From Octopus vulgaris (Eukaryota), in assembly GCA_951406725.2 (NCBI GenBank), contig OX597836.1, positions 31,744,001 through 31,808,000 on the forward strand: 64,000 nt of DNA, written 5' to 3'. Shown here piece by piece: positions 1 through 62,520 of the stretch (within the stretch, counting starts at the first letter, position 1; every line of letters begins with the position of its first letter). The notes below the pieces were generated by a model. It did not search any database and was not told the DNA's origin. It saw nothing but the letters and a program-made list of their open reading frames with translations. The translations under genes were made by a program, and so were the position numbers.

Positions 1-741
1 GATATTCTGAAGAATTAAGACAGACAACTGCAGAGATACAATACTGAAGATACACTGGCATGAACAGATTAAATGGCTATAAAAAAATATAAAACAAATG
101 AATATGGCAATGACTAGTAACCTAACTAACAAAAGCATAGAATGACTTTCAAAAAAAAAAAGTATTTGTTTCATTTGGTTTGATTTATTTTGCTTGAATT
201 TTCCATTCCTTCTGCTTGAGTTTTCTATTCCTAGTGTCACATATAATTACATATGAGTTTGCAGAAAATAAGAGATTTCAGGTTTTGTCTTTGATTAGCC
301 AAATCCAATGACAAATCTCTTTCAAAGATATATTATTTGTGATGAGCTTGTACAGAACAAAGAAAGAATACACCAAAGAGATCTCCTTTCTATTTTGATT
401 TCCTTTCTGTTTTGCTTCAATTGCAAACTGGAAAACCACTGGCCATTTGAATCATTTAGAGATTTTTGTGATGTTAGTTCTGAACAAAACTGAAACAAAG
501 TATTCCCAAGCACTTACTAGCATTTTCCTCTCCAACAATAAGAACTCAGAGTATCCCATTAAAGACCAAATCCCTTTGCCAATTTCTTTTTGCAACCAAA
601 AGCATATAATTAACATGCGAAAAAAAACTAGATCCTTCATTAAGTAATTAGACTGAATAGTTATTCTTCAAGAATACTCACAGAAAATACCTTAAGATTG
701 TCAAAAATATTTCAAAATAAATCTTTGAAAGCTGAACTTAC

Positions 742-775
742 TTTTCCCTGTCTGGAAACTTCTCTGGAATTACAC
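742..775 (-). CDS. ENPP: ENPP-family gene micro-exon (GVIPEKFPDRE)
   Basis: Acceptor attacag and donor GTAAGT; 34 nt, phase 1/2. Continues the G..P motif after WPG. The gene continues left of the window. Confidence 0.75.
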
Positions 776-1727
776 CTGTAATATATGCAGAAGACAAGGT
801 TTTAAACTAAACCTACTTGAAAGTCGTTACTTGGAAAGAATGCATACTTTCAAGGTTAAGTGTGCATACATGTGTATAAAAAAGGATGAAGCTCAGTCTT
901 GAGTTGTATAGACGCATAAAGCTGGTTTCCTAGATTCTGTGGTGTATATATATTTCCCCTGGACAAGATGCCAGTCTACTGCAAGAATATTCATTTTTGC
1001 CACCTGAGTGGACTGGAGCAACATGAAATAAAATGTTTTGTGGTGTGTTTACGTCCCCGTAACTTAGCAGTTCAGCAAAAGAAACCGATAGAATAAGTAC
1101 TAGGCTTACAAAGAATAAGTCCTGGGGTTGATTTGCTCGACTAAAGGCGGTGCTCCAGCATGGCCGCAGTCAAATGACTGAAACAAGTAAAAGTGTAAAA
1201 GAGTAAGAGTACATTGCCCAGTCCAAGAATTGAAACCACTATCTTATGATCGCGAGTCCAAAACTCACCACTAAGCCATGCACCGCCCACTACACTCTCA
1301 GAGTGGTTGGCATTAGGAAGGGCATCCAGCTGTAGAAACACTGCCAGATCAGACTGGAGCCTGGTGCAGCCTCCTGGCTTCCCAGACCCCAGTTGAACCG
1401 TCCAACCCATGCCAGCATAGAAAACAGATGTTAAACGATGACGACAATGATGATTATGTGTATGTATGCATATGTATTGTATAGTACATGACTATTTCAG
1501 TGCAATTTCCGACACAGTTATGTTATTGTAGAATTGTATACTAATGTATTCATGTATGCTTGAATGTATGTATGACTGAGTGTATATATATGCTTGTGTG
1601 AGTTCATTATGATAACTGTATTAAGTTACTGATTTGTATCTTAAAACTGTTCTTTATTATTTGTCATTGAATGTTCCACCACTTATTACATTTGAGCTAT
1701 GTGCTATTCATGTTCTGATGAATATCA

Positions 1728-2083
1728 GAGAGCATAATCCTATGAACCCAGAAAATTTAAAACAGAGGGTTACCTAATTGCAAACAAATGTGGTAACATG
1801 TAACATCATTGACCAAGGTAACTGTGGTCTTTTCTGTAGGCTTTTATTCTCACGGATAAACCTTATCTGCTTCCCCCTTTACACTTTACACCATGACACT
1901 GTGATACATGATCCCTATTGATCGTTTTTTTCCCCTTTTTTTTTCTTCTTTCCCTTTTACGATCCCTTTTGATCGAAAACCTAACCCACCTTTGTTTTTT
2001 TTTTGTCTCCCCCAAAAAGAAAAGCTCTACTTTGTAATCTGTCCCGTCTGTGTGCAGCCCTGTGTGGCTAATAAAGAAACGTA
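1728..2083 (+). mobile_element. 5'-truncated LINE 3' end with 14-bp TSD
   Basis: TSD tctgatgaatatca at 1714-1727 and 2084-2097. The 3' end tgtcccgtctgtgtgcagccctgtgtggctaataaagaaa resembles the family-B SINE tail. Confidence 0.6.
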
Positions 2084-2283
2084 TCTGATGAATATCAAAC
2101 TCTCAGGTACGTTTACCTGTAAATAAACACGGAACTGTCTATAAAGTATACAACATGAATCCTCTTGTTTTGAAACCTCTCTAATTTACCTCAGTAAAGC
2201 TCTTTAAAGTTTTTTTTCTGAGAGTCTTACATAACATTCATTAAGCTGTTTTTTTGAAACATAACTTATAAAAAGGTTCCTAC

Positions 2284-2384
2284 ATTAAGATGAAAGAATT
2301 TAGTTTGAATATTTACATTTTAAGGCATGAGGATTAAGATGAAAGAATTTAGTTTGAATATTTACATTTTAAGGCATGAGGATT
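2284..2384. repeat. Perfect 49-bp tandem duplication
   Basis: attaagatgaaagaatttagtttgaatatttacattttaaggcatgagg x2. Confidence 0.9.
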
Positions 2385-3050
2385 TTGTATCAGAGAACCA
2401 GAGCCAGGGCCAGGAATTAATTCTGCACAATATATTATCTGCACTGAAAACAGGGGCTTCAGAGTGCAAGTCACTTATAGTAATGAGAATATAATTATAA
2501 ATCTTTGTTAGCAAATCATCTCAAATGGAGCCAAGCAAGATTTAGTAATGGTCTCATAATATGAATTTTAAATCTATTATTAATTATATCTCTGCTGCAA
2601 TGGCATTAATGTTGGTATTAAAACTTAATGGACTCAGATGGTTGTGCTGTTAAGATCTTTGCATCATTATTGTATGGTTCTGGGTTCATCTCCACTGCTT
2701 AGCACATTGGAAAAGTGTCTTCTATTATAGTCTCAGATTGATCAAACTCTTGTTCATGAAATTCGGTTCAAATTTTGGCACAAGGCCAGCAATTTTGGAG
2801 GAGGGGTACATCAATCACATCGACCTTAGTGTCCAACTGGTACTTATTTTATCGATCTTTTTGAGGATGAAAGACTAAGTCAACCTTGGCAGTATTTGAA
2901 TTCAGTATGTAAAGATGGATGAAATGCCGCTAAGCATTTTGCTCCTGTCAGCTTGCTGTCCTCTAGTTCATGAAACTAGGTTCAAATTTTGGCACAAGAC
3001 CAACAATTCCAGAGCGAGGATGAGTCAATTACATCGTGTCCAGGGTCTAA

Positions 3051-3783
3051 TTACCTCTTCCTTAGCAAAGGTAGTGGTATTGTTTCCAGTTGTGTTTGCT
3101 TGTCCTTGGACAAGATATCTCAAAAACCACTGGATGGATTCAGATGAAACTTTCAAGAATGTTTGGCCTCATGACTGGCACAAACGGATTAGATTTTGGG
3201 ATCGATCCGGTATTGGACAAGGATTCTGGATTATTTTTCCTGTTAGGTTCATTTTAAGTATTCTCGTTTGTGAGAGCAGTCAAGTTTATTTCAGACTAGC
3301 AGTATCGCCCGGCATTGCTCGGGTTTGTAAGAGAAATAACTATATGAGCATTTTTAGAGAGTTATAGCCAAAAAATAGCAAAAAAATGCATTAAAAATGG
3401 AAAAAAAATGATGGTAAATTTTTTTTTAAATCGTTGACTCATCATAGACATTTTTAGAGAGTTACTTCCCTTATATAATAGCGAAAAAATGCATTAAAAT
3501 GGAAAAAAATTATGGTAAATTTTTTTAAAATCGTAGACTCATCGTAGACGCGTGCTAAAATCCAGAAGGGCTCAATATGAATCACGACTATAAGATACCC
3601 ACTTTTGGTTACACTGCACCGCAAAATGTGGGAGTAGTTAGGAATCTAAATCGTAGGAGACAGACACACAACCTCTCTTTTATATATAAAGATATTCTCA
3701 TTTTAAAAATCCTCTCCGGTTAATCATTGAGAGGACATTGGTGTTGCCTTGGCGGAGGTTTGCACTCTCTGAGTGCTCTTGTT
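3051..3783 (+). mobile_element. Non-autonomous Helentron/HINE-like element, interrupted by a Helitron
   Basis: Starts ttacctc; ends ggcggaggt plus a gcactc/gagtgc hairpin; splits a family-B SINE. Confidence 0.55.
3296..3692 (-). mobile_element. Non-autonomous Helitron
   Basis: Minus strand: 5' TC(tttatatata), subterminal hairpin cccg..cggg, 3' CTAG; inserted between A and T with no TSD. Confidence 0.8.
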
Positions 3784-4139
3784 AGTACTTATTTTAATGA
3801 CATTTTTGGGGATGAAAAGCAAAGTTGACCCCAGCAGCATTTGAACTTAGAATCTAAAGACAGATGAAATGCTGCCAAGCATTTTTCCCTGCATGCTAAC
3901 AATTCTGCCAGCTTGTCACCCTTTTCTACGTGAAATTGAATAAATAGAAATCATGTGAAAGAACCAAAGGTAATAGGTTTAATCTATCATCCAGTTTTGC
4001 ACCATCACTTGGTCCTTAGGCATCTTCAGCCAGCATTCAAACTGGGTTCTTTGGTCATAGGATAACCTAAAAGACTTTATTACACCTGTTTCCCAAGCCA
4101 CAAGACTTATACCAAATCCTCTGATGAAGCCATGAATAA

Positions 4140-4595
4140 AAAAAGGGGGAGAAAGGAAAAGAAAAATGGGAGAAAGAAAATAAAAAAGGGGAAAGGAAAA
4201 TAAAAAAGAGGGTAGGAAAGGAAAAAGTGAAAGGGAAAGAAAAAAGGGGGAAGGAAAAGAAAAAAGGAGGAAGGAAAAAAGGGGGGAGGAAAATAAAAAA
4301 GGGGATAGGAAAGGAAAAAGGTGAAAGGGAAAGAAAAGGGGAGAAGGAAAAGAAAAGAGAAAAGGAAAAAAGGGAAAGGAAAATAAAAAAGGGGGAAGGA
4401 AAATAGAAAAGGGGGAAGGAAAAGAAAAAAGGAGGAAGGAAAAACGGGGAAAGGAAAATAACAAAAGAGAAAGGTAAAGAAAAAAGGAGTTAGGTAAAGA
4501 AAAAGGCGAAAGGGAAAGAAAAACGGGGGAAGGAAAAGAAAAGAAAAAAGGGGAAAGGCAAAGAAAGAAGGGGGAAGGAAAAGAGAAAAAAGAGG
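4140..4595. repeat. Polypurine (A/G) low-complexity tract
   Basis: Degenerate ggaaaagaaaaaagggg units. Confidence 0.9.
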
Positions 4596-4675
4596 TATAT
4601 TTCTAATTCAAAAAAACTTTCTTGCAAACCAGAAAACAAAATGACATTGGTTTAGTTTGATTTATTTCTTCTTAC

Positions 4676-4745
4676 CTGAAATGTTGACTTTTGCACCTGG
4701 CCATCCAAAAGAGATTGCTTTCTTTCGGCCTACTTTCACCCAAAT
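4676..4745 (-). CDS. ENPP: ENPP-family gene exon (IWVKVGRKKAISFGWPGAKVNISG)
   Basis: Acceptor gttattcag and donor GTAAG; 70 nt, phase 0/1. Matches ENPP IWVT...FFWPGSDV.I.G. Confidence 0.9.
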
Positions 4746-4934
4746 CTGAATAACAACAGCGACAACAAATAAACTTAAGGCATAAAATAAAATGTAAGAT
4801 TTTAAACAAAGAATAAAAAAATTTACAAGACAAGATATTTAAAAAAAATTTTCTTAAATCTTAAATAATATAAGTATTTCTATTGTGATACATATCTTTG
4901 ATTTTTTACTTGTTTCAGCCATGCTCAATTCTGC

Positions 4935-5565
4935 TGCATACAGCAGTGTTTGGAAGGAACGTGTGTAGCGTGTGATCATCACAATGATCATGACAGAGAA
5001 AGCTAAGCTGAGAATCTGCATCAAATTTTGTCAAAAGCTTGGTGTTACCTGCACAGAGGCTTAAGCAGAGTTTTCATTATTCTCAACTCAATCAAGGAGA
5101 TTTTGTACAACTGAAACCTGAGTGTCTTTTTGATCAGCTGAAAACAGTTTTGGCACAAACTTGGCAGACACGTGTCTCATACCCAAATCTTCAGTGATAA
5201 TGGATTGAACTGAACCGTAACTAATCTGCACATCCTCTGATAACTCATGGATGATGATTCAACGATTTCCCCTCACAGCTGCATGCACATCTGCAATGTT
5301 TTTCTCAGTTCTGCTGGTTGTATGTCTCCCAGAATGTTCATCAATATTGACATTTTTTCAGCCATCTTGGAAACGTCTGAACCTCCTGTACACTTGTGTG
5401 CCGCTCATACACTCCTCTCCATACACTTTCTGCAACTTTGTGTAGGCCTTTGAGCAGGTATCACCACGACAACTTTCTCTGTCATGGTATCACCACGACA
5501 ACTTTCTCTGTGTGCTTTAGCTTTGTTACTATGGCAACAGTCCGGATACTTATTGATCAAACCAT
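4935..5565. mobile_element. Mariner transposase relic with internal inversion
   Basis: Plus strand MTEKAKLRICIKFCQKLG. Minus strand KLQKVYGEECMSGTQVY...FQDG..NVNIDEHSGR...LGMRHVSAKFVPK, with stops. TIR-like cagtccggatacttattgatca near 5540-5560. Confidence 0.8.
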
Positions 5566-5844
5566 GACTCTACCAAAAAGAAATTGCGTCAGCTCAATAT
5601 ATGGTCTGAGATCAAGTCACAAGACAATCAAGTAGAGATCAGAAACTATTGTTTTTTTTATAGTCTATGAAGAATATAAAAAGTTCCATAAATATATGTA
5701 GTATCAGTATCTATAGTTTGCATTTTATGACAGAGCCAAATATTATTGTTTTATTAACTCACAATATAACTGGAAATTTATTTCAGAATCAAAAATAATA
5801 GCTAGCTGTAAAATCTGAAGAAGAGATCAGAATAGTAACTATAC

Positions 5845-6900
5845 TAAAAAGTAAAGTCAGTTGCTACATCAAAGTGGCAGTTCCATGTTAATTCTAGTTT
5901 AACCCCAGGCAGATCTTTTGCCAGCTGGTTATCAGTGCAACAGTGGAGGCGCAATGGCCCAGTGATTAGAGCAGCGGACTCGCGGTCGTAAGATCGCGGT
6001 TTCGATTCCCAGACCGGGTGTTGTGAGTGTTTATTGAGCGAAAACACCTAAAGCTCCACGAGGCTCCGGCAGGGGATGGTGGTGATCCCTGCTGTACTCT
6101 TTCGCCACAACTTTCTCTCACTCTTTCTTCCTGTTTCTGTTGTACCTGTATTTCAAAGGGCCGGCCTTGTCACTCTCTGTGTCACGCTGAATATTCCCAA
6201 GAACTACGTTAAGGGTACACGTGTCTGTGGAGTGCTCAGCCACTTACACGTTAATTTCACGAGTAGGCTGCTCCGATGGTCGGATCAACCGGAACCCTCA
6301 TCGTCGTAACCGACGGAGTGCTTCCATCCATCAGTGCAACACTGCATCCTTTATATACAAAATATATCGTTAGCAGGGAGAGCAAACACTTACCTAGCAA
6401 ATAAAAGGATTCCAGCACTGACTCAGTTTTGAGTTATTTGGCTCATCCTCAGTTGTGCACACCTGGATGCCTGAGCGACAGCCTGAATAGTAACGTGGAA
6501 CAGCCACTTGGATGTTGGTGACTGACTTTATTTTTTAGTATAGTTACCACTCTGATCTCTTCTTGAGGTTTAACAACCAGCTACTTTACTTGTTGCAAAT
6601 CAGTGACTGATGGTTGCTTTGTTTACAATATATTGCTGGCTGGAGTGGACTCTGGTCATTTCTCTGGCAACCAGGTACTGGTGACTGCGGACGAGCCAAA
6701 TAGCTCAAAACTGAGTCAGTCTTGAGATCCTGTTATCTGCGAAAGGATGGTAGTGGTTTGCTCCCCACTGCTTGCAATATATATTGCATATAAAGGGTGC
6801 TGTGTTGCACTGTTAACCAGCTGGCAGAAGATCTGCTTGGGGTTAAACTAGGAGTAAAATGGAACAGCTACTTTGATGTGGTGACTGACTTTACTTTTCA
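5845..6900. mobile_element. Fold-back/MITE with about 200-bp inverted arms, left arm split by a SINE
   Basis: 5845-5942 plus 6342-6453 is the reverse complement of 6683-6900. Confidence 0.75.
5943..6329 (+). mobile_element. tRNA(Arg)-derived SINE (OR-like), tail type 1, 12-bp TSD
   Basis: A box tggcccagtg, TCG anticodon loop, B box ggtttcgattcc. TSD atcagtgcaaca at 5931-5942 and 6330-6341. Confidence 0.9.
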
Positions 6901-7164
6901 AAGATAATACTTATTCTTTTAGGTTAATGAATTCTAAATGATTGTTATTCTATTTGAAACCATTATCACATTCTTGTTCTGGATATAGTCGATTACATCG
7001 ACCCCAGTGTATATCTGGTACTTATTTCATCAACCTCGAAATGATGAAAGGCAAAGTTGATCTCAGCAGAATTTGAACTCAGAATGTAAGAACGAACGAA
7101 ATGCCACTAAGCAATTTCCCTGGCAATCTACCGATTCTGCCCCCCAAAGGGAATGAAAACTTAC

Positions 7165-7287
7165 TGGTTCTCCTTGCCACCATCTTGGGTCTAAAGTTGA
7201 AGAAACATTGTTGGCATCAAATTTGGGTTTGATTTTGGAATCTACCATCACATTATTTGTGATTCCATGGGATTCTGGATACAAACC
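7165..7287 (-). CDS. ENPP: ENPP-family gene exon (GLYPESHGITNNVMVDSKIKPKFDANNVSSTLDPRWWQGEP)
   Basis: Acceptor tttcctgttttag and donor GTAAGT; 123 nt, phase 0/0. Diagnostic GLYPESHGI..N and W..GEP motifs. Confidence 0.95.
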
Positions 7288-8756
7288 CTAAAACAGGAAA
7301 GAAAATTGAGAGAGAGTTATATTATGTTAATTCATCTTCAGAGAATAACATAGATGTTAGTCTACTTCTTTATAACAGAAATCTTCAGAAAATAATTTTT
7401 TTTAATGACGCAGTAGGGAATAAGTTAATTATTTAAAATATGTCATTATCTGAAGATTTTATTTGATAAAAAATTTCTACTTCATGTATACACATACACA
7501 AAAATGGATACGCATTTATGCATATATAAATATTTACCTATATTTGATAAAACTGACTCCATAGAGGCTGGCGTTGTTCTGAATCAGCAAAACTCATATT
7601 GTAGAATAAAATCAATGAAAAAAAGCTACAGTTCCATCCAAAACGTTGCTGCTTCCACAGTTAACATTCAAAACTCTTCTTTTCTAATTGTTCTCCTTCC
7701 CCTCCATACATTAACACAGAAGGAAAGGAGAACTGTCTGAAACTTTGAATTTTTCACTCCTCACAGCAATTTCACTATACACTTTTTAATGACTTTACTA
7801 CACACACACTCACACACACACATACACACACACATTGATGTATGTTTCTATGGTATAATAAAAACAGTTTTGCATTCAACTGGAAAATTACTCAATACAT
7901 TTGTTAGAGTATGAATTTATTAATCTAAGTCACTGTCTATTATATTATTCACATTAAAGAACAATAAATTTGTATTGAATGAATTAAACCTATTTTTCCT
8001 CATATGATCTATTATTCCTTTAACACAGTAATTTTTTTAGCCCAGACATCCATAATAATTCATAATATGTGTGTGCCTTATTTGTCCTATTCATCCATGT
8101 TTAATTTCATTTTTTCCTCTGCTCCACATGAATGACATCAAGCTTTTCACCCTATTTAATACCAGTGAGTTCATCTCCTTCATGGAATATACCAATTTCT
8201 TGGACACTTCTTACCATCTGTTAGACATTCTATCAATTTGTATAGACATTTTACCATTGTTGTGTATTTTCCATGATTTTTTCTCTCTCTTTACAGACTT
8301 CAAGCCTTTCCAGTTTTTAGTTTAAGCTGTCCCTCTTTGTTAAAAAATGGAACAGCCAATTTGATGTGGCACCTGACTTTACTTTTTAAAGATAATACTT
8401 TTTCTTTTATGTTAATGAATTCTAAATAATTACTATTCTATTTGAAACTATTATCACATTCTTGTTCTGGAAATAATTTAAAACTGTATTTGGTAGCGGG
8501 ACCCTGGTTTGGCAGTTCTGATCTTTTAAGGAATGTGGAACCACCATCTGCCTGCTATTGTTCTTCAGTCTACTCTGATTTGTCACAGCCCTGCCTATGG
8601 GTTAATTAGTAATTAAGTTAATTAGCATGTCAGAAAATTGCCTCTATAAGAAGGCCATCGAATGACACCCTAATGGACAACGATGAGGTGCATTAGGTTT
8701 TTAGCTGCTCATCTAAGAGAAGGTAACTCCATACAACACCTGCATTCTGATAAGTT

Positions 8757-21019: not shown

Positions 21020-21114
21020 TCATCTCCATCACCAATAACCTCTTCCTCCTCCTTTTCCACCTCCACCTCCTCCCCATCAACATCACCACCACCACCGCCA
21101 CCACCACCACCACC

Positions 21115-21148
<34 letters not shown>

Positions 21149-21234
21149 TCATCACCACCACCACCACCACCACCACCACCACCACCACCATCATCATCAC
21201 CATCATCATCACCATCACCACCACCACCACCACC

Positions 21235-21265
<31 letters not shown>

Positions 21266-21324
21266 CCACCACCACCACCACCACCACCACCACCACCACC
21301 ACCACCACCACCACCACCACCACC

Positions 21325-21358
<34 letters not shown>

Positions 21359-21383
21359 TCACCATCACCACCATCATCATCAT
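21020..21383. repeat. Compound (CAC)n/(CAT)n trinucleotide repeat
   Basis: Alternating CAC and CAT blocks. Confidence 0.95.
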
Positions 21384-22058
21384 GCGGCAAAAAAGGCAAA
21401 ATAATGTTGACCTAGTTAAAAGAACAGAGCTTGCAAAAATGTTGACAAGACACGTTTTTGGCTTTGAATTAGGAACGAAGTTTTATTTGCTTATTATTTC
21501 ATTTGTGGCATTATGCTTTGTGAAAACGTTGAACTGTTTTGTTATAGATTTCTACTGTTGGAGACAATCATTGACTCGTTTGGATTTTCCAATGGTGAGA
21601 ATGAATGACACAAAAGTGGTTTTTGCAACTTCTGCAGAATATATATACCGCATTGGAATTTTTGCTCAATGCATCAATTTATTGGTCTACTCAATGATGC
21701 GTATATCTTTCATTACATATATCCATATCAGCATCGTCATTTTCATCCATATTTAATTCTGACATTGGACACACACACACACACATACACACATACACGC
21801 ACACACGTATACTGTAATAATAAGGAACAGACAAATAGTAAATGGTACTTCTAAGTCTTCTATATACACATTTGGAATATTGAAGTATTGAGTATGGAAC
21901 TGGTTACTTATCTCAGTTTATCTGGTTATGTGTTGTGCCTTGCAGCACACTTTTATCTCTCTCTCTCTCTCCGTCCCTTTCTTTCTCTCTCTCTCTCCCC
22001 GTCTTTCTCTCTCTCTCCCCCCTCTCTCTCTCTCTCTCTCTCTCTGTATATTATATAT

Positions 22059-28949: not shown

Positions 28950-29527
28950 AGTATCAAGCAGTGAGACTGAATGCTCAACACTGCATTGGTGGATAAATAA
29001 TATTCTTCATTTGTGAGATAACCAGGCTACCATTGGTTTTATGTTGAGAGAGATAACACTTAGCAATTATTCAAGTCCATCACATGGGATGTTGGTGCTT
29101 GTCTCCATCTTGAATAAAACCAACGTCCTATGTGGCAGACTTCAATAATTGTTGAGAGACATCTCTCACAGCATGAGACCAATGATAGTCTTGTTACCTC
29201 ACAAATAAAGAATATTATTAAATATTATTTAAAAGGCGGCGAGCTGGCAGAAACGTTAGCACGCCGGGCGACCTGTGTAGCCGTATTTCGTCTGTCGTTA
29301 CGTTCCGAGTTCAAATTCCGCTGAGGTCGACTTTGCCTTTCATCCTTTCGGGGTCGATAAATTAAGTACCAGTTACGCACTGGGGTCGATGTAATCGACT
29401 TAATCCCTTTGTCTGTCCTTGTTTGTCCCCTCTGTGTTTAGCCCCTTGTGGGTAGTAAAGAAATAAATAAAGAATATTATTTATCCACCAATGCATCGTT
29501 GAGCACTCATTCTCGCTGTTTGATACT
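28950..29527. mobile_element. MITE with about 55-bp TIRs, interrupted by a family-B SINE
   Basis: gtatcaagcagtgagactgaatgctcaac...ggtggataaataatattctt is inverted at 29470-29527. Confidence 0.7.
29233..29465 (+). mobile_element. Family-B SINE (ggcggcgagctggcagaa...gcctttcatcctttcggggtcgataaa...gtagtaaagaaata)
   Basis: B box gagttcaaattcc; flanked by duplicated aaataaagaatattatt; inserted in a MITE. Confidence 0.85.
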
Positions 29528-29942
29528 AATGTGTGTGTGTGTGTGGGCACAAACATAGCTGCATAGATAAGAAGTCTAAAATTTTGTCTTGGCACATGTA
29601 AAAAGCACCCAGTACACTCCATAAAGTGGTTGGCATTAGGAAGGGCATCCAGCCATAGAAACCATGCCACAACAGAAAGCTGGAGTTTGGACAGCTCCTT
29701 GCTAGCTGTTTCCTTTTAAACCATCCAACCCATGCCAGTATGAAAAGCGGACATTAAATGATAATGCTGATGATGCCGATGGATCTCATAGCTAGGGGTT
29801 CAGTTCTGCTGTGTGAATGCTGTTGGCTAGCATTTATTCTGTTATAGCCATGGATCAATCAATACCTTGTGAGTGACTGTTAGTAAATGGAAACTAAAGA
29901 AATATGTCTGTCTGTCTGTATGTCTGTATGTATGTATGTATG

Positions 29943-30000
<58 letters not shown>

Positions 30001-30442
30001 CCTATCTATCTTTTACCCTCATGTGAGGCCAGATCAGACAGACTTGCTATATATATATATATACATTACTATACCCTTAATGTAGTTAGCATGACACAAA
30101 ATGTGACAAGGATGATTCTTTTGAAATACTGGCACTACTCATTTATGCCAGTTGAGCGAACTGGAGCAAAACGAAATAAAGTGTCTTGCTCAAGGACGCA
30201 ATGCGATGCTAGGAATTGAACTCACAATCATGAATCACAAACCCTAACCACTAAGCCACATGCCTTCATGTTTACATTTGTCTACACTATAATTCTACAT
30301 CAAATTGTATGCCAGAAGATAAATATGATATTGGAATCTATATGATCAAGTAAGACCCTTCAAGGTGGTGCTCCAGCATGGCCCCAATCCAGTGACTGAA
30401 ACAAGTAAAAAGATAAAAGAATAAAATAAAATAAAAACTTAC

Positions 30443-30614
30443 TGTTACGATTGAGTACAGATTTGGTGAGCTCAGCGTTGGATAGACGCTCTGCATATAT
30501 GTTGCATGTACACCTTCCTGGGCCAACATTTGTAGTGTTTTTGTGACATTTCTATCAAGGTAATTTGCTCTGAAATGTCCTATGGCTATTAGCAACAACG
30601 GATGTCTGTCAGAA
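30443..30614 (-). CDS. ENPP: ENPP-family gene exon: start of phosphodiesterase domain (SDRHPLLLIAIGHFRANYLDRNVTKTLQMLAQEGVHATYMQSVYPTLSSPNLYSIVT)
   Basis: Acceptor ttttttag and donor GTAAGT; 172 nt, phase 2/0. Aligns to the ENPP motif PLLLISLDGFRAEYL...MRPVYPTKTFPNHYSIVT. Confidence 0.93.
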
Positions 30615-31606
30615 CTAAAAAATAAAATGATGTAAATTGATAACCGAAAGATAAAGAACTAAAAGATGGTAAAACTATACTATTATTTTGTTACAGTGGA
30701 TCTTGAAGCATATAAAGCTATAGTTAACAACATGTAAATACTAGGTTGAAAAGTTCTCGTGGAGAGAAAAAATCAAAAGCTATCCATATAACAAGACCCT
30801 GCATCTCCTACAGACACAACAACCTTTGACATTTTCTGTCCAAAAATGTTTTCCAACCCAATTTTTACATGCTGTTATTTATAGCTCTATGTGTTTCAAG
30901 ATCCATTGTTCCAAAAAAAAAAACAAACATTATTTTATATTCTCTTTTAAGTTAATAAATACTTTTGATGTTGACATCATTATTTCAATTTTAGGTAGAG
31001 TACAATGATCTTTTGTAAGGAGAATACCTTAACTTCCATCTACCATAAAAATGTACCTCCATCCCACTCCTCAGGTTTTGTAGATTTGTGATTTGCATGA
31101 CTTCCTCACTAATGCCAGTTGTGAGAAGAAAACACCCAGTATAAGCTGTAAAGTGGTTGGCACCAAGAAGGACATCCAGCTGTAAAAACCCTGTAAAAGC
31201 AGACACTGCAGGTCGACGCAGTCCTTGGGCCCAATGAATCCTGTTAAGCTGTCCAACCCATGCCAGCATGGAACATGGACATTAAACGATGATGATGATG
31301 GTGGTGATGATGATGGTGTTGTGTAATGGTTCTACCAGTTTTCATGCGAGTTGGATGGTCATATCAAAATAAGTCAATACAATGTAAAGCTTGTTTGATG
31401 ATGGAAAAAGTGGCCACTGATGTTCTGTACAGGACTTGTTTGGTTTTTCATAAGTTTTGACTGTAGGTCTGTATCAATTATGAAAATTGCGTTTCATAGC
31501 ATATTAAGTATCTAATTGTCTGAGATGAGTTCTTGTTAATACAATTAGACTGTTTTGAACTTCTAACCTCATCTACAGAGAACAAATAACTTTTAATATT
31601 TACATA

Positions 31607-39338: not shown

Positions 39339-39478
39339 GCTTTTAATGGTGTTGTAGTAGTTGGTATTTTTGTCGTTGTTGTTGTTGGCTTTGTTTGGTT
39401 TAAGGCTTCTACATTCTTGTGTGTTTTCCCAGTAACATGTATTCCAACACCAACTCCTATAGCTGTGCAAAGAAGAGT
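39339..39478 (-). CDS. ENPP: ENPP-family gene exon: end of TM helix plus Thr-rich stalk (TLLCTAIGVGVGIHVTGK...KPTTTTTKIPTTTTPLKA)
   Basis: Acceptor ttcttctgtgttgcag and donor GTAAGC; 140 nt, phase 0/2. Phase-compatible with both flanking exons. Confidence 0.8.
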
Positions 39479-62475: not shown

Positions 62476-62520
62476 CATTATTCCAAAGAGGGCAAAAATT
62501 CTTCTGTTGAATTTTCTTTT
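62476..62520 (-). CDS. ENPP: ENPP-family gene, internal exon: basic cytoplasmic segment plus start of TM helix (KRKFNRRIFALFGIM)
   Basis: Acceptor ttttttccctttgttatag and donor GTAAGT; 45 nt, phase 0/0. Joins in frame to 39478 to give KRKFNRR-IFALFGIMTLLCTAIGVGVGIHV, a positive-inside type II signal anchor. Confidence 0.75.

Follow-up and report, generated by a model that had tools for sequence, protein, structure and literature searches.

The exon at 30443..30614 raises the question of whether an ENPP whose active-site motifs have been rewritten is a dead enzyme, an enzyme with a new activity, or a part of something larger. From this exon and the following one, the initial annotation had proposed a candidate pseudoenzyme or a neofunctionalised ectoenzyme. 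Following the gene beyond the window (the whole 64,000-nucleotide stretch of octopus DNA that was analysed) leads us to a reading that we hold with good confidence: exon 5 encodes part of the first of three tandem modules in one ENPP frame, module 1 being likely a folded but inactive pseudoenzyme domain and module 3 likely catalytic.

Exon 5 and the residues it encodes

Coding exon 5 (172 nt, minus strand 30614-30443) has AG/GT borders and an entry phase of 2, and its translation contains ...LLLIAIGHFRANYL...VYPTLSSPNLYSIVT. Its resemblance to ENPPs is not due to chance, because it matches a Xanthomonas NPP with an E-value of 3e-10 and PF01663 at 2e-8 (profile search of the 2.8 Gb genome). The codons behind AIGHFR and PTLSSPNL had been read correctly (minus-strand GGA 30580-30578, CAT 30577-30575 and AGC 30472-30470), and the assignment of the odd positions to the equivalents of D218, T256 and F257 was borne out by a match to human ENPP1 residues 210-265. 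On the numbering of full-length human ENPP1 (6wet; query 4-57 on chain 210-265, counted from both match ends), Gly100 corresponds to D218, His101 to G219, Ser136 to T256, Ser137 to F257 and Leu140 to the His of PNH. The N277 equivalent, said to be retained within HGITNN, is Asn157 in exon 6 (7287-7165).

The exon had also been described as in frame with canonical splice sites, which agrees with its AG/GT borders and with the joining of exons 5-7 in contigs of RNA-like runs, where 'RNA' is a guess at run type and the contigs carry neither expression level nor tissue. Contigs ending at the exon 5 edges occur in four of four runs from four studies (three span 30442-30614 and one 30476-30614), and exons 5, 6 and 7 are joined on a single contig, recognised by its equal length and depth at each exon, in two of the three RNA-like runs compared; in the fourth run compared, which is DNA-like, contigs read through the exon borders. 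An unexpressed locus with dN/dS near 1 had been named as one way in which the proposal might fail, and exon 5 is spliced in these contigs, with the same proviso on run type. Another, a canonical exon used in its place, was sought with a profile from 104 homologous exons over 454 kb, which holds only three such exons, one per module, and hence no alternative canonical copy.

Rescue of the altered codons by A-to-I editing was rejected: no A-to-G change yields Asp from GGA or GTG, Thr from AGC or His from TCT. The X1 contig is identical to exon 5, and the listed differences of X5 (two of its three), X7 and X8 fall on other codons. A homologue search with exon 5 alone among longer proteins gave nine candidates, none of which scored.

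Gene structure and order of the modules

Mapping the O. sinensis protein onto 454 kb of the genome gave a gene of 55 coding exons over 327 kb, with 54 GT-AG introns and one 6492-nt open frame of 2163 residues, which differs from Octopus sinensis XP_029649912 (2163 residues) at 39 positions over its 2163 residues. The window holds exons 3-8 of the 55, with a gap of 23 kb between exons 5 and 6.

Coding features of the gene. Positions are those of the window unless a contig or a side of the window is named.
Exons 1-2: 31882810 and 31827893, to the right of the window
Coding exon 3: 62476..62520, minus strand, residues 27-41; last part of the cytosolic tail and first part of the predicted membrane helix, AG/GT borders, identical to the Octopus sinensis protein
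Coding exon 4: 39339..39478, minus strand, residues 42-88; remainder of the membrane helix and Thr-rich stalk
Coding exon 5: 30443..30614, minus strand, residues 88-145; first exon of phosphodiesterase module 1
Coding exon 6: 7165..7287, minus strand, residues 146-186; GLYPESHGITNN, N277 equivalent Asn157 kept
Coding exon 7: 4676..4745, minus strand, residues 187-209; module 1
Coding exon 8: 742..775, minus strand, residues 210-220; module 1
Exons 9-55: G000:C23:31742261-31556057, to the left of the window; rest of module 1, modules 2 and 3

Along the chain a short cytosolic tail is followed by a hydrophobic helix, a Thr-rich stalk and three modules, each of a phosphodiesterase and a nuclease-like domain. 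The top eight hydropathy windows begin at residues 33-40, with the peak from residue 34, and this helix before module 1 is the sole anchor; the predicted topology is type II with an N-terminal anchor. PF01663 matches three stretches of the orthologue P0189, and PF01223 matches it with an E-value of 4.9e-21 (best stretch 547-752), the corresponding exons following each catalytic domain; a genome-wide PF01223 search gave no match, which fits the short exons and is not evidence of absence. No somatomedin-B domain (PF01033) was found on P0189 or P0187, the stalk being Thr-rich instead.

Thirteen matches to PF01663 were found in the genome. Three of them are copies of the first catalytic exon, all on one strand of contig C23 in a span of no more than 190 kb. 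In the second copy the motifs are LSLHNFN...YPYKSLPNL, in the third SLDGFR...FPSKTFPNH. The modules have 17 exons apiece, all 17 with entry phases identical across modules, which is a mark of internal duplication. The last exons of modules 1 and 2 contain no stop and run into a linker and a GT donor, and the stop comes only after module 3.

A search with the exon over 1.84 billion proteins returned as its top two matches molluscan proteins of about 2200 residues with three matches each, and a second search returned 47 long proteins that include XP_029649912 and a 2135-residue protein which we call cuttlefish, as its 90% cluster includes a Sepia pharaonis entry. This orthologue has the same three modules, and the Logan contigs that carry it, 6.7-7.1 kb long, are as long as a single spliced transcript. 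Among the octopus RNA-like contigs compared none crosses a module junction, the longest extending some 1000 nt beyond exon 7 and ending within module 1, and on that account a separate octopus transcript of module 1 alone may be conceivable. Three things point to a single octopus chain: its open frame, the RefSeq model and the length of the cuttlefish contigs (6.7-7.1 kb).

Some introns in the window are rich in repeats. Intron 5 holds a very long triplet repeat of CAT/CAC type at about 21040-21400 (more than 100 His codons if read), and the introns at 600-7500 and 29500-31500 are rich in high-copy short repeats with very deep contig cover in all runs compared.

Catalytic residues and constraint

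The catalytic positions are D218, T256, N277, D376, H380, D423, H424 and H535 (available text of PMC10761680). At these, module 1 reads G, S, N, V, E, D, H and S and so keeps three of eight, Asn157 and the pair Asp302/His303 (D423/H424), which is not the residue set of an active two-Zn NPP. It carries D218G, T256S, D376V, H380E and H535S, with Ser at F257; the last three of these five changes (D376 to V, H380 to E, H535 to S) and the kept D423/H424 pair came from the downstream exons that the initial annotation had proposed to recover. The replacements take in each of the three Zn1 ligands as well as the Zn2 Asp, four of six ligand positions in all, and octopus differs at Y340 and D326 too, in loops where the alignment is less sure. 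In mouse ENPP1, hydrolysis of ATP and cGAMP is lost on substitution by Ala at five of the six Zn ligands, and only the H380 equivalent is dispensable for ATP hydrolysis (accessible part of PMC9173814). Module 1 has replaced three of the five ligands given as essential there, plus the sixth, and because the mouse enzyme loses activity with Ala at those ligands, by that standard NPP activity is very unlikely in module 1.

By alignment, module 2 reads H, S, E, N, H, D, H and Y, three of eight; because a deletion follows the D376 position, its kept His is uncertain. Module 3 has all eight residues together with K255, F257 and Y340, as in an active two-Zn NPP. Judged by these residues, modules 1 and 2 are likely inactive and module 3 is likely catalytic, and the whole protein is probably not a pseudoenzyme, because the active site of its third module is complete. 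Exon 5 does not belong to a stand-alone ENPP. The proposal of an ENPP pseudoenzyme is supported for the module 1 domain, a candidate that is retained, expressed and more damaged than first seen (D376, H380 and H535 being replaced as well), and probably fails for the protein as a whole.

Separately, module 2 (G000:C23:31669584-31624385, L008-L012) has lost different residues in octopus and cuttlefish. The cuttlefish copy keeps the Zn1 ligands and has Asn at the nucleophile; the octopus copy has lost D376 and H535, with His at D218 and Ser at T256.

The initial annotation had further suggested that the new His and Ser might form an alternative metal site. The octopus and cuttlefish modules pair in our tree with support of 0.996 (module 1), 0.991 (module 2) and 0.997 (module 3). 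Cuttlefish module 1 has D218G, D376V and H535S in common with octopus and reads SIGGYR and PTLTQPNL, with Gly at the position of octopus His101, Thr at that of Ser136 and Gln at F257; the ligand losses are shared, the His and the Ser are absent, and this speaks against such a site. A fragment from Argonauta, the only further cephalopod protein among the best 120 of 4941 matches, also has D376V and H535S, still carries His at 380 and does not extend over the exon 5 region. Since cuttlefish shares the losses and lacks the His and the Ser, the D218G/D376V/H535S loss is, on the sequences compared, older than the octopus-cuttlefish split, at about 270 million years, and the His and the Ser came later. 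Nor does Ser136 indicate the alkaline-phosphatase-like switch of nucleophile that had been raised, because ENPP6 also has Ser, with the Asp kept.

Identity between octopus and cuttlefish is 44% for PDE1 (165/375), 47% for PDE2 and 49% for PDE3 (185/380), with no significant difference between PDE1 and PDE3 (Fisher p 0.21). Between the two octopus sequences there are 12 changes in 377 residues of PDE1 and three in 383 of PDE3 (p 0.019), and none in the 318 residues of the module 1 nuclease-like domain; the faster change of PDE1 fits relaxed constraint as well as a new job. Of the 120 columns in which 85% or more of 88 intact modules agree, 81 are kept in module 1, 86 in module 2 and 102 in module 3. 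An AlphaFold model of O. sinensis module 1, made without metal from an alignment of mostly active relatives, has a pLDDT of 90.3 and a TM score of 0.92 to NPP3 and ENPP1. Constraint thus acts on the fold of module 1, to a somewhat smaller degree than in the active module, and not on its active site. Module 1 does not have the marks of a pseudogene: the 55 exons are free of stops and frameshifts, splice sites are intact and exons 5-7 are spliced.

Molluscan relatives, alternative readings and known systems

Our family survey covered 42 proteins, 41 of the 47 matches and one from the earlier search, six fusion-like fish, fungal and metagenome entries being omitted. Twenty-nine were counted as molluscan, two of them by similarity only, and these have two to four modules per chain and 90 modules in all, of which 76 are intact, seven substituted and seven incomplete in the record. 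Among the 29, substituted modules occur in five (octopus, cuttlefish, Dreissena, Patella and Mactra), each of which retains an intact module, and only the two coleoid proteins have two substituted modules of three. The combination of D218G and H535S is shared by module 1 of the coleoids, module 1 of Patella and module 3 of Mactra, accompanied by N277D in three of the four sequences. The tree comprised 73 of 113 modules (40 were left out as partial or redundant), and in it long degenerate branches cluster at the base, so that coleoid and bivalve modules are not matchable by position. Mactra module 3 lies within an intact bivalve clade (support 0.99), and for this reason the Mactra case is independent; the placement of Patella is unsupported (0.43). 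The recurrence could also reflect the easiest path of decay.

Several observations from the survey stand apart. Mactra (P0184) module 3 and Patella (P0012) module 1 carry D218G, N277D and H535S just as cuttlefish module 1 does, apparently with more than one origin. Four-module ENPPs of up to 2960 residues occur (P0165, P0166, P0167/P0176; Littorina, Haliotis, Mya), and two-module ENPPs are found in annelids, a priapulid and nematodes (Caenorhabditis species). Six crustacean proteins of 1370-1600 residues (P0195, P0198-P0201, P0203) each have one degenerate ENPP domain (three to six of eight residues) and none that is intact, and in the three scanned the remaining chain is without a Pfam match.

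Elsewhere in the octopus genome there is an ENPP6-like gene on the minus strand (L041:556-723, L042, L043; G000:C17) with LDGFR intact and a Ser nucleophile (PTISYPNYY). A canonical short ENPP, presumably ENPP4/5-like, has most of its catalytic domain in one long exon (L021:5235-6128, minus strand; G000:C19), and L044 (G000:C5:30413000-30417500, plus strand) is a 1008-codon open frame with a PF01663 match, which we take to be a GPI ethanolamine-phosphate transferase from its appearance.

NCBI lists the molluscan multi-module proteins as uncharacterised. No description of tandem or pseudo-ENPPs in molluscs turned up in the accessible papers, a set with few subscription titles, and gene-family tables in supplements could mention them. 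An ENPP with a nuclease domain in Dreissena plasma increases 4.6-fold on exposure to poly I:C, the gene not being stated in the accessible part of PMC7148315; the salivary ENPP5 of the vampire snail is of another type, with 441 residues (available text of PMC4460706), and an octopus ENPP6 has been reported (PMC6635378, available text).

Other readings of the locus have to be set against that of a pseudoenzyme module in an active protein. It is very improbable that three adjacent genes, or a decaying pseudogene copy, have been misjoined in one model. The introns that part the modules, 37 (10.1 kb) and 21 (1.8 kb), are indeed uncrossed by the RNA-like contigs compared, but an uninterrupted frame through 55 exons, modules 1 and 2 that end in a linker and a donor, one membrane anchor for all three, the splicing of exons 5-7 and the single-chain three-module proteins of cuttlefish and many other molluscs all argue for one gene. 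Somewhat less remote, though still very unlikely, is that module 1 is a rewired single-metal enzyme with another activity, in which Ser136, Asp302, His303 and His101 hold a metal at the Zn2 position. All four residues are present in octopus module 1 and could in principle bind one metal, octopus module 2 independently has Ser at the nucleophile and His at D218, and in sulfatases the position following D218 holds a metal ligand. The cuttlefish orthologue, however, has Gly-Gly and Thr at those positions, D376 and H535 have become Val and Ser, so that no polar charged substitute is left for Zn1, and degenerate modules, crustacean ones included, almost all retain the Asp-His pair, which looks structural. 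Nor does S-S-P-N-L in octopus module 1 fit the sulfatase formylglycine signature C/S-x-P-x-R. One-metal members of the superfamily exist, such as a Pseudomonas arylsulfatase (available text of PMC3693508), and module 1 may bind one metal through Asp302/His303, Asn157 and the Ser and His near the old Zn2 site; new chemistry there is unlikely.

A regulatory role, in which the site was switched off and the module kept to bind a ligand or partner or to tune module 3, as do the pseudo-domains of other tandem enzymes, has a small chance of being right. It would suit both the recurrence of D218G with H535S in coleoid, Patella and Mactra modules, at least the last of them independent, and a conservation of module 1 near that of the active module. 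Normal nucleotide binding is made unlikely, though, by Ser (octopus) or Gln (cuttlefish) at F257 and by the changed Y340 and D326; Asp to Gly and Asn to Asp each take one base change and come about readily, and there is no known partner. A wider proposal, which has the recurrence of D218G with H535S as its main ground and which we offer tentatively and think rather unlikely, is of an undescribed molluscan family of concatemeric ENPPs in which single modules were independently made metal-free (D218G and H535S, often with N277D), two of the three coleoid modules serving as partner-binding or controlling units; if true, this would be the first natural pseudo-ENPP regulatory domain.

Under the preferred reading of a pseudoenzyme module in an active protein, the octopus protein would be a type II membrane ecto-enzyme at the cell surface, whose module 3, at the far end of the chain, would bind two Zn and cut extracellular nucleotides via its Thr nucleophile, as ENPP1 and ENPP3 do. 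ENPP1-3 control extracellular ATP, pyrophosphate and cGAMP, and the substrates of module 3 might include cGAMP since its H380 equivalent is kept. Internal duplication would have made catalytic sites redundant. Module 1, with all three Zn1 ligands gone, would not bind Zn1 and would be without the Zn2 Asp and the base-stacking Phe, a loss dating from before the octopus-cuttlefish split, the His and the Ser being later octopus-side drift in a dead site. Modules 1 and 2 would do no catalysis, and module 1 would likely have been kept for its structure, as a spacer or scaffold that separates the working module from the membrane. Chains that in nature carry from two to four modules, some of these inactivated in particular lineages, can test why a non-catalytic NPP module is kept and whether modules influence one another in cis; it also carries a warning for annotation, in that a dead-looking exon can lie within a probably active protein.

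Vertebrate ENPP1 and ENPP3 (6wet, 6c01, 9nir) are the best PDB matches of both the whole octopus protein and the module 1 model (TM 0.92) and likewise have an N-terminal membrane helix and PF01663 followed by a nuclease-like domain, whereas the octopus protein has three modules instead of one, a Thr-rich stalk without somatomedin-B and ligand-poor modules 1 and 2. Alkaline phosphatase has six conserved ligands (available text of PMC3693508); module 1 has the Ser of an alkaline phosphatase with four of six ligand positions replaced, and so does not have such a site. ENPP6 resembles module 1 in its Ser nucleophile (FPSLSYPNYY in 5ege) but keeps the Asp of LDGFR. The same tandem build is seen in uncharacterised molluscan ENPPs (among them Mizuhopecten OWF35917, Dreissena XP_052277762, Haliotis, Littorina, Mya and Patella), and every solved structure matched has one catalytic module. 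Pseudo and active domains stand in tandem in the receptor tyrosine phosphatases (D2), in JAK (JH2) and in ENPPs themselves, with their inactive nuclease-like domain. As in the octopus protein, D2 and JH2 are duplicated folds that lack catalytic residues beside a working copy; those are other folds, for which a regulatory role is proven.
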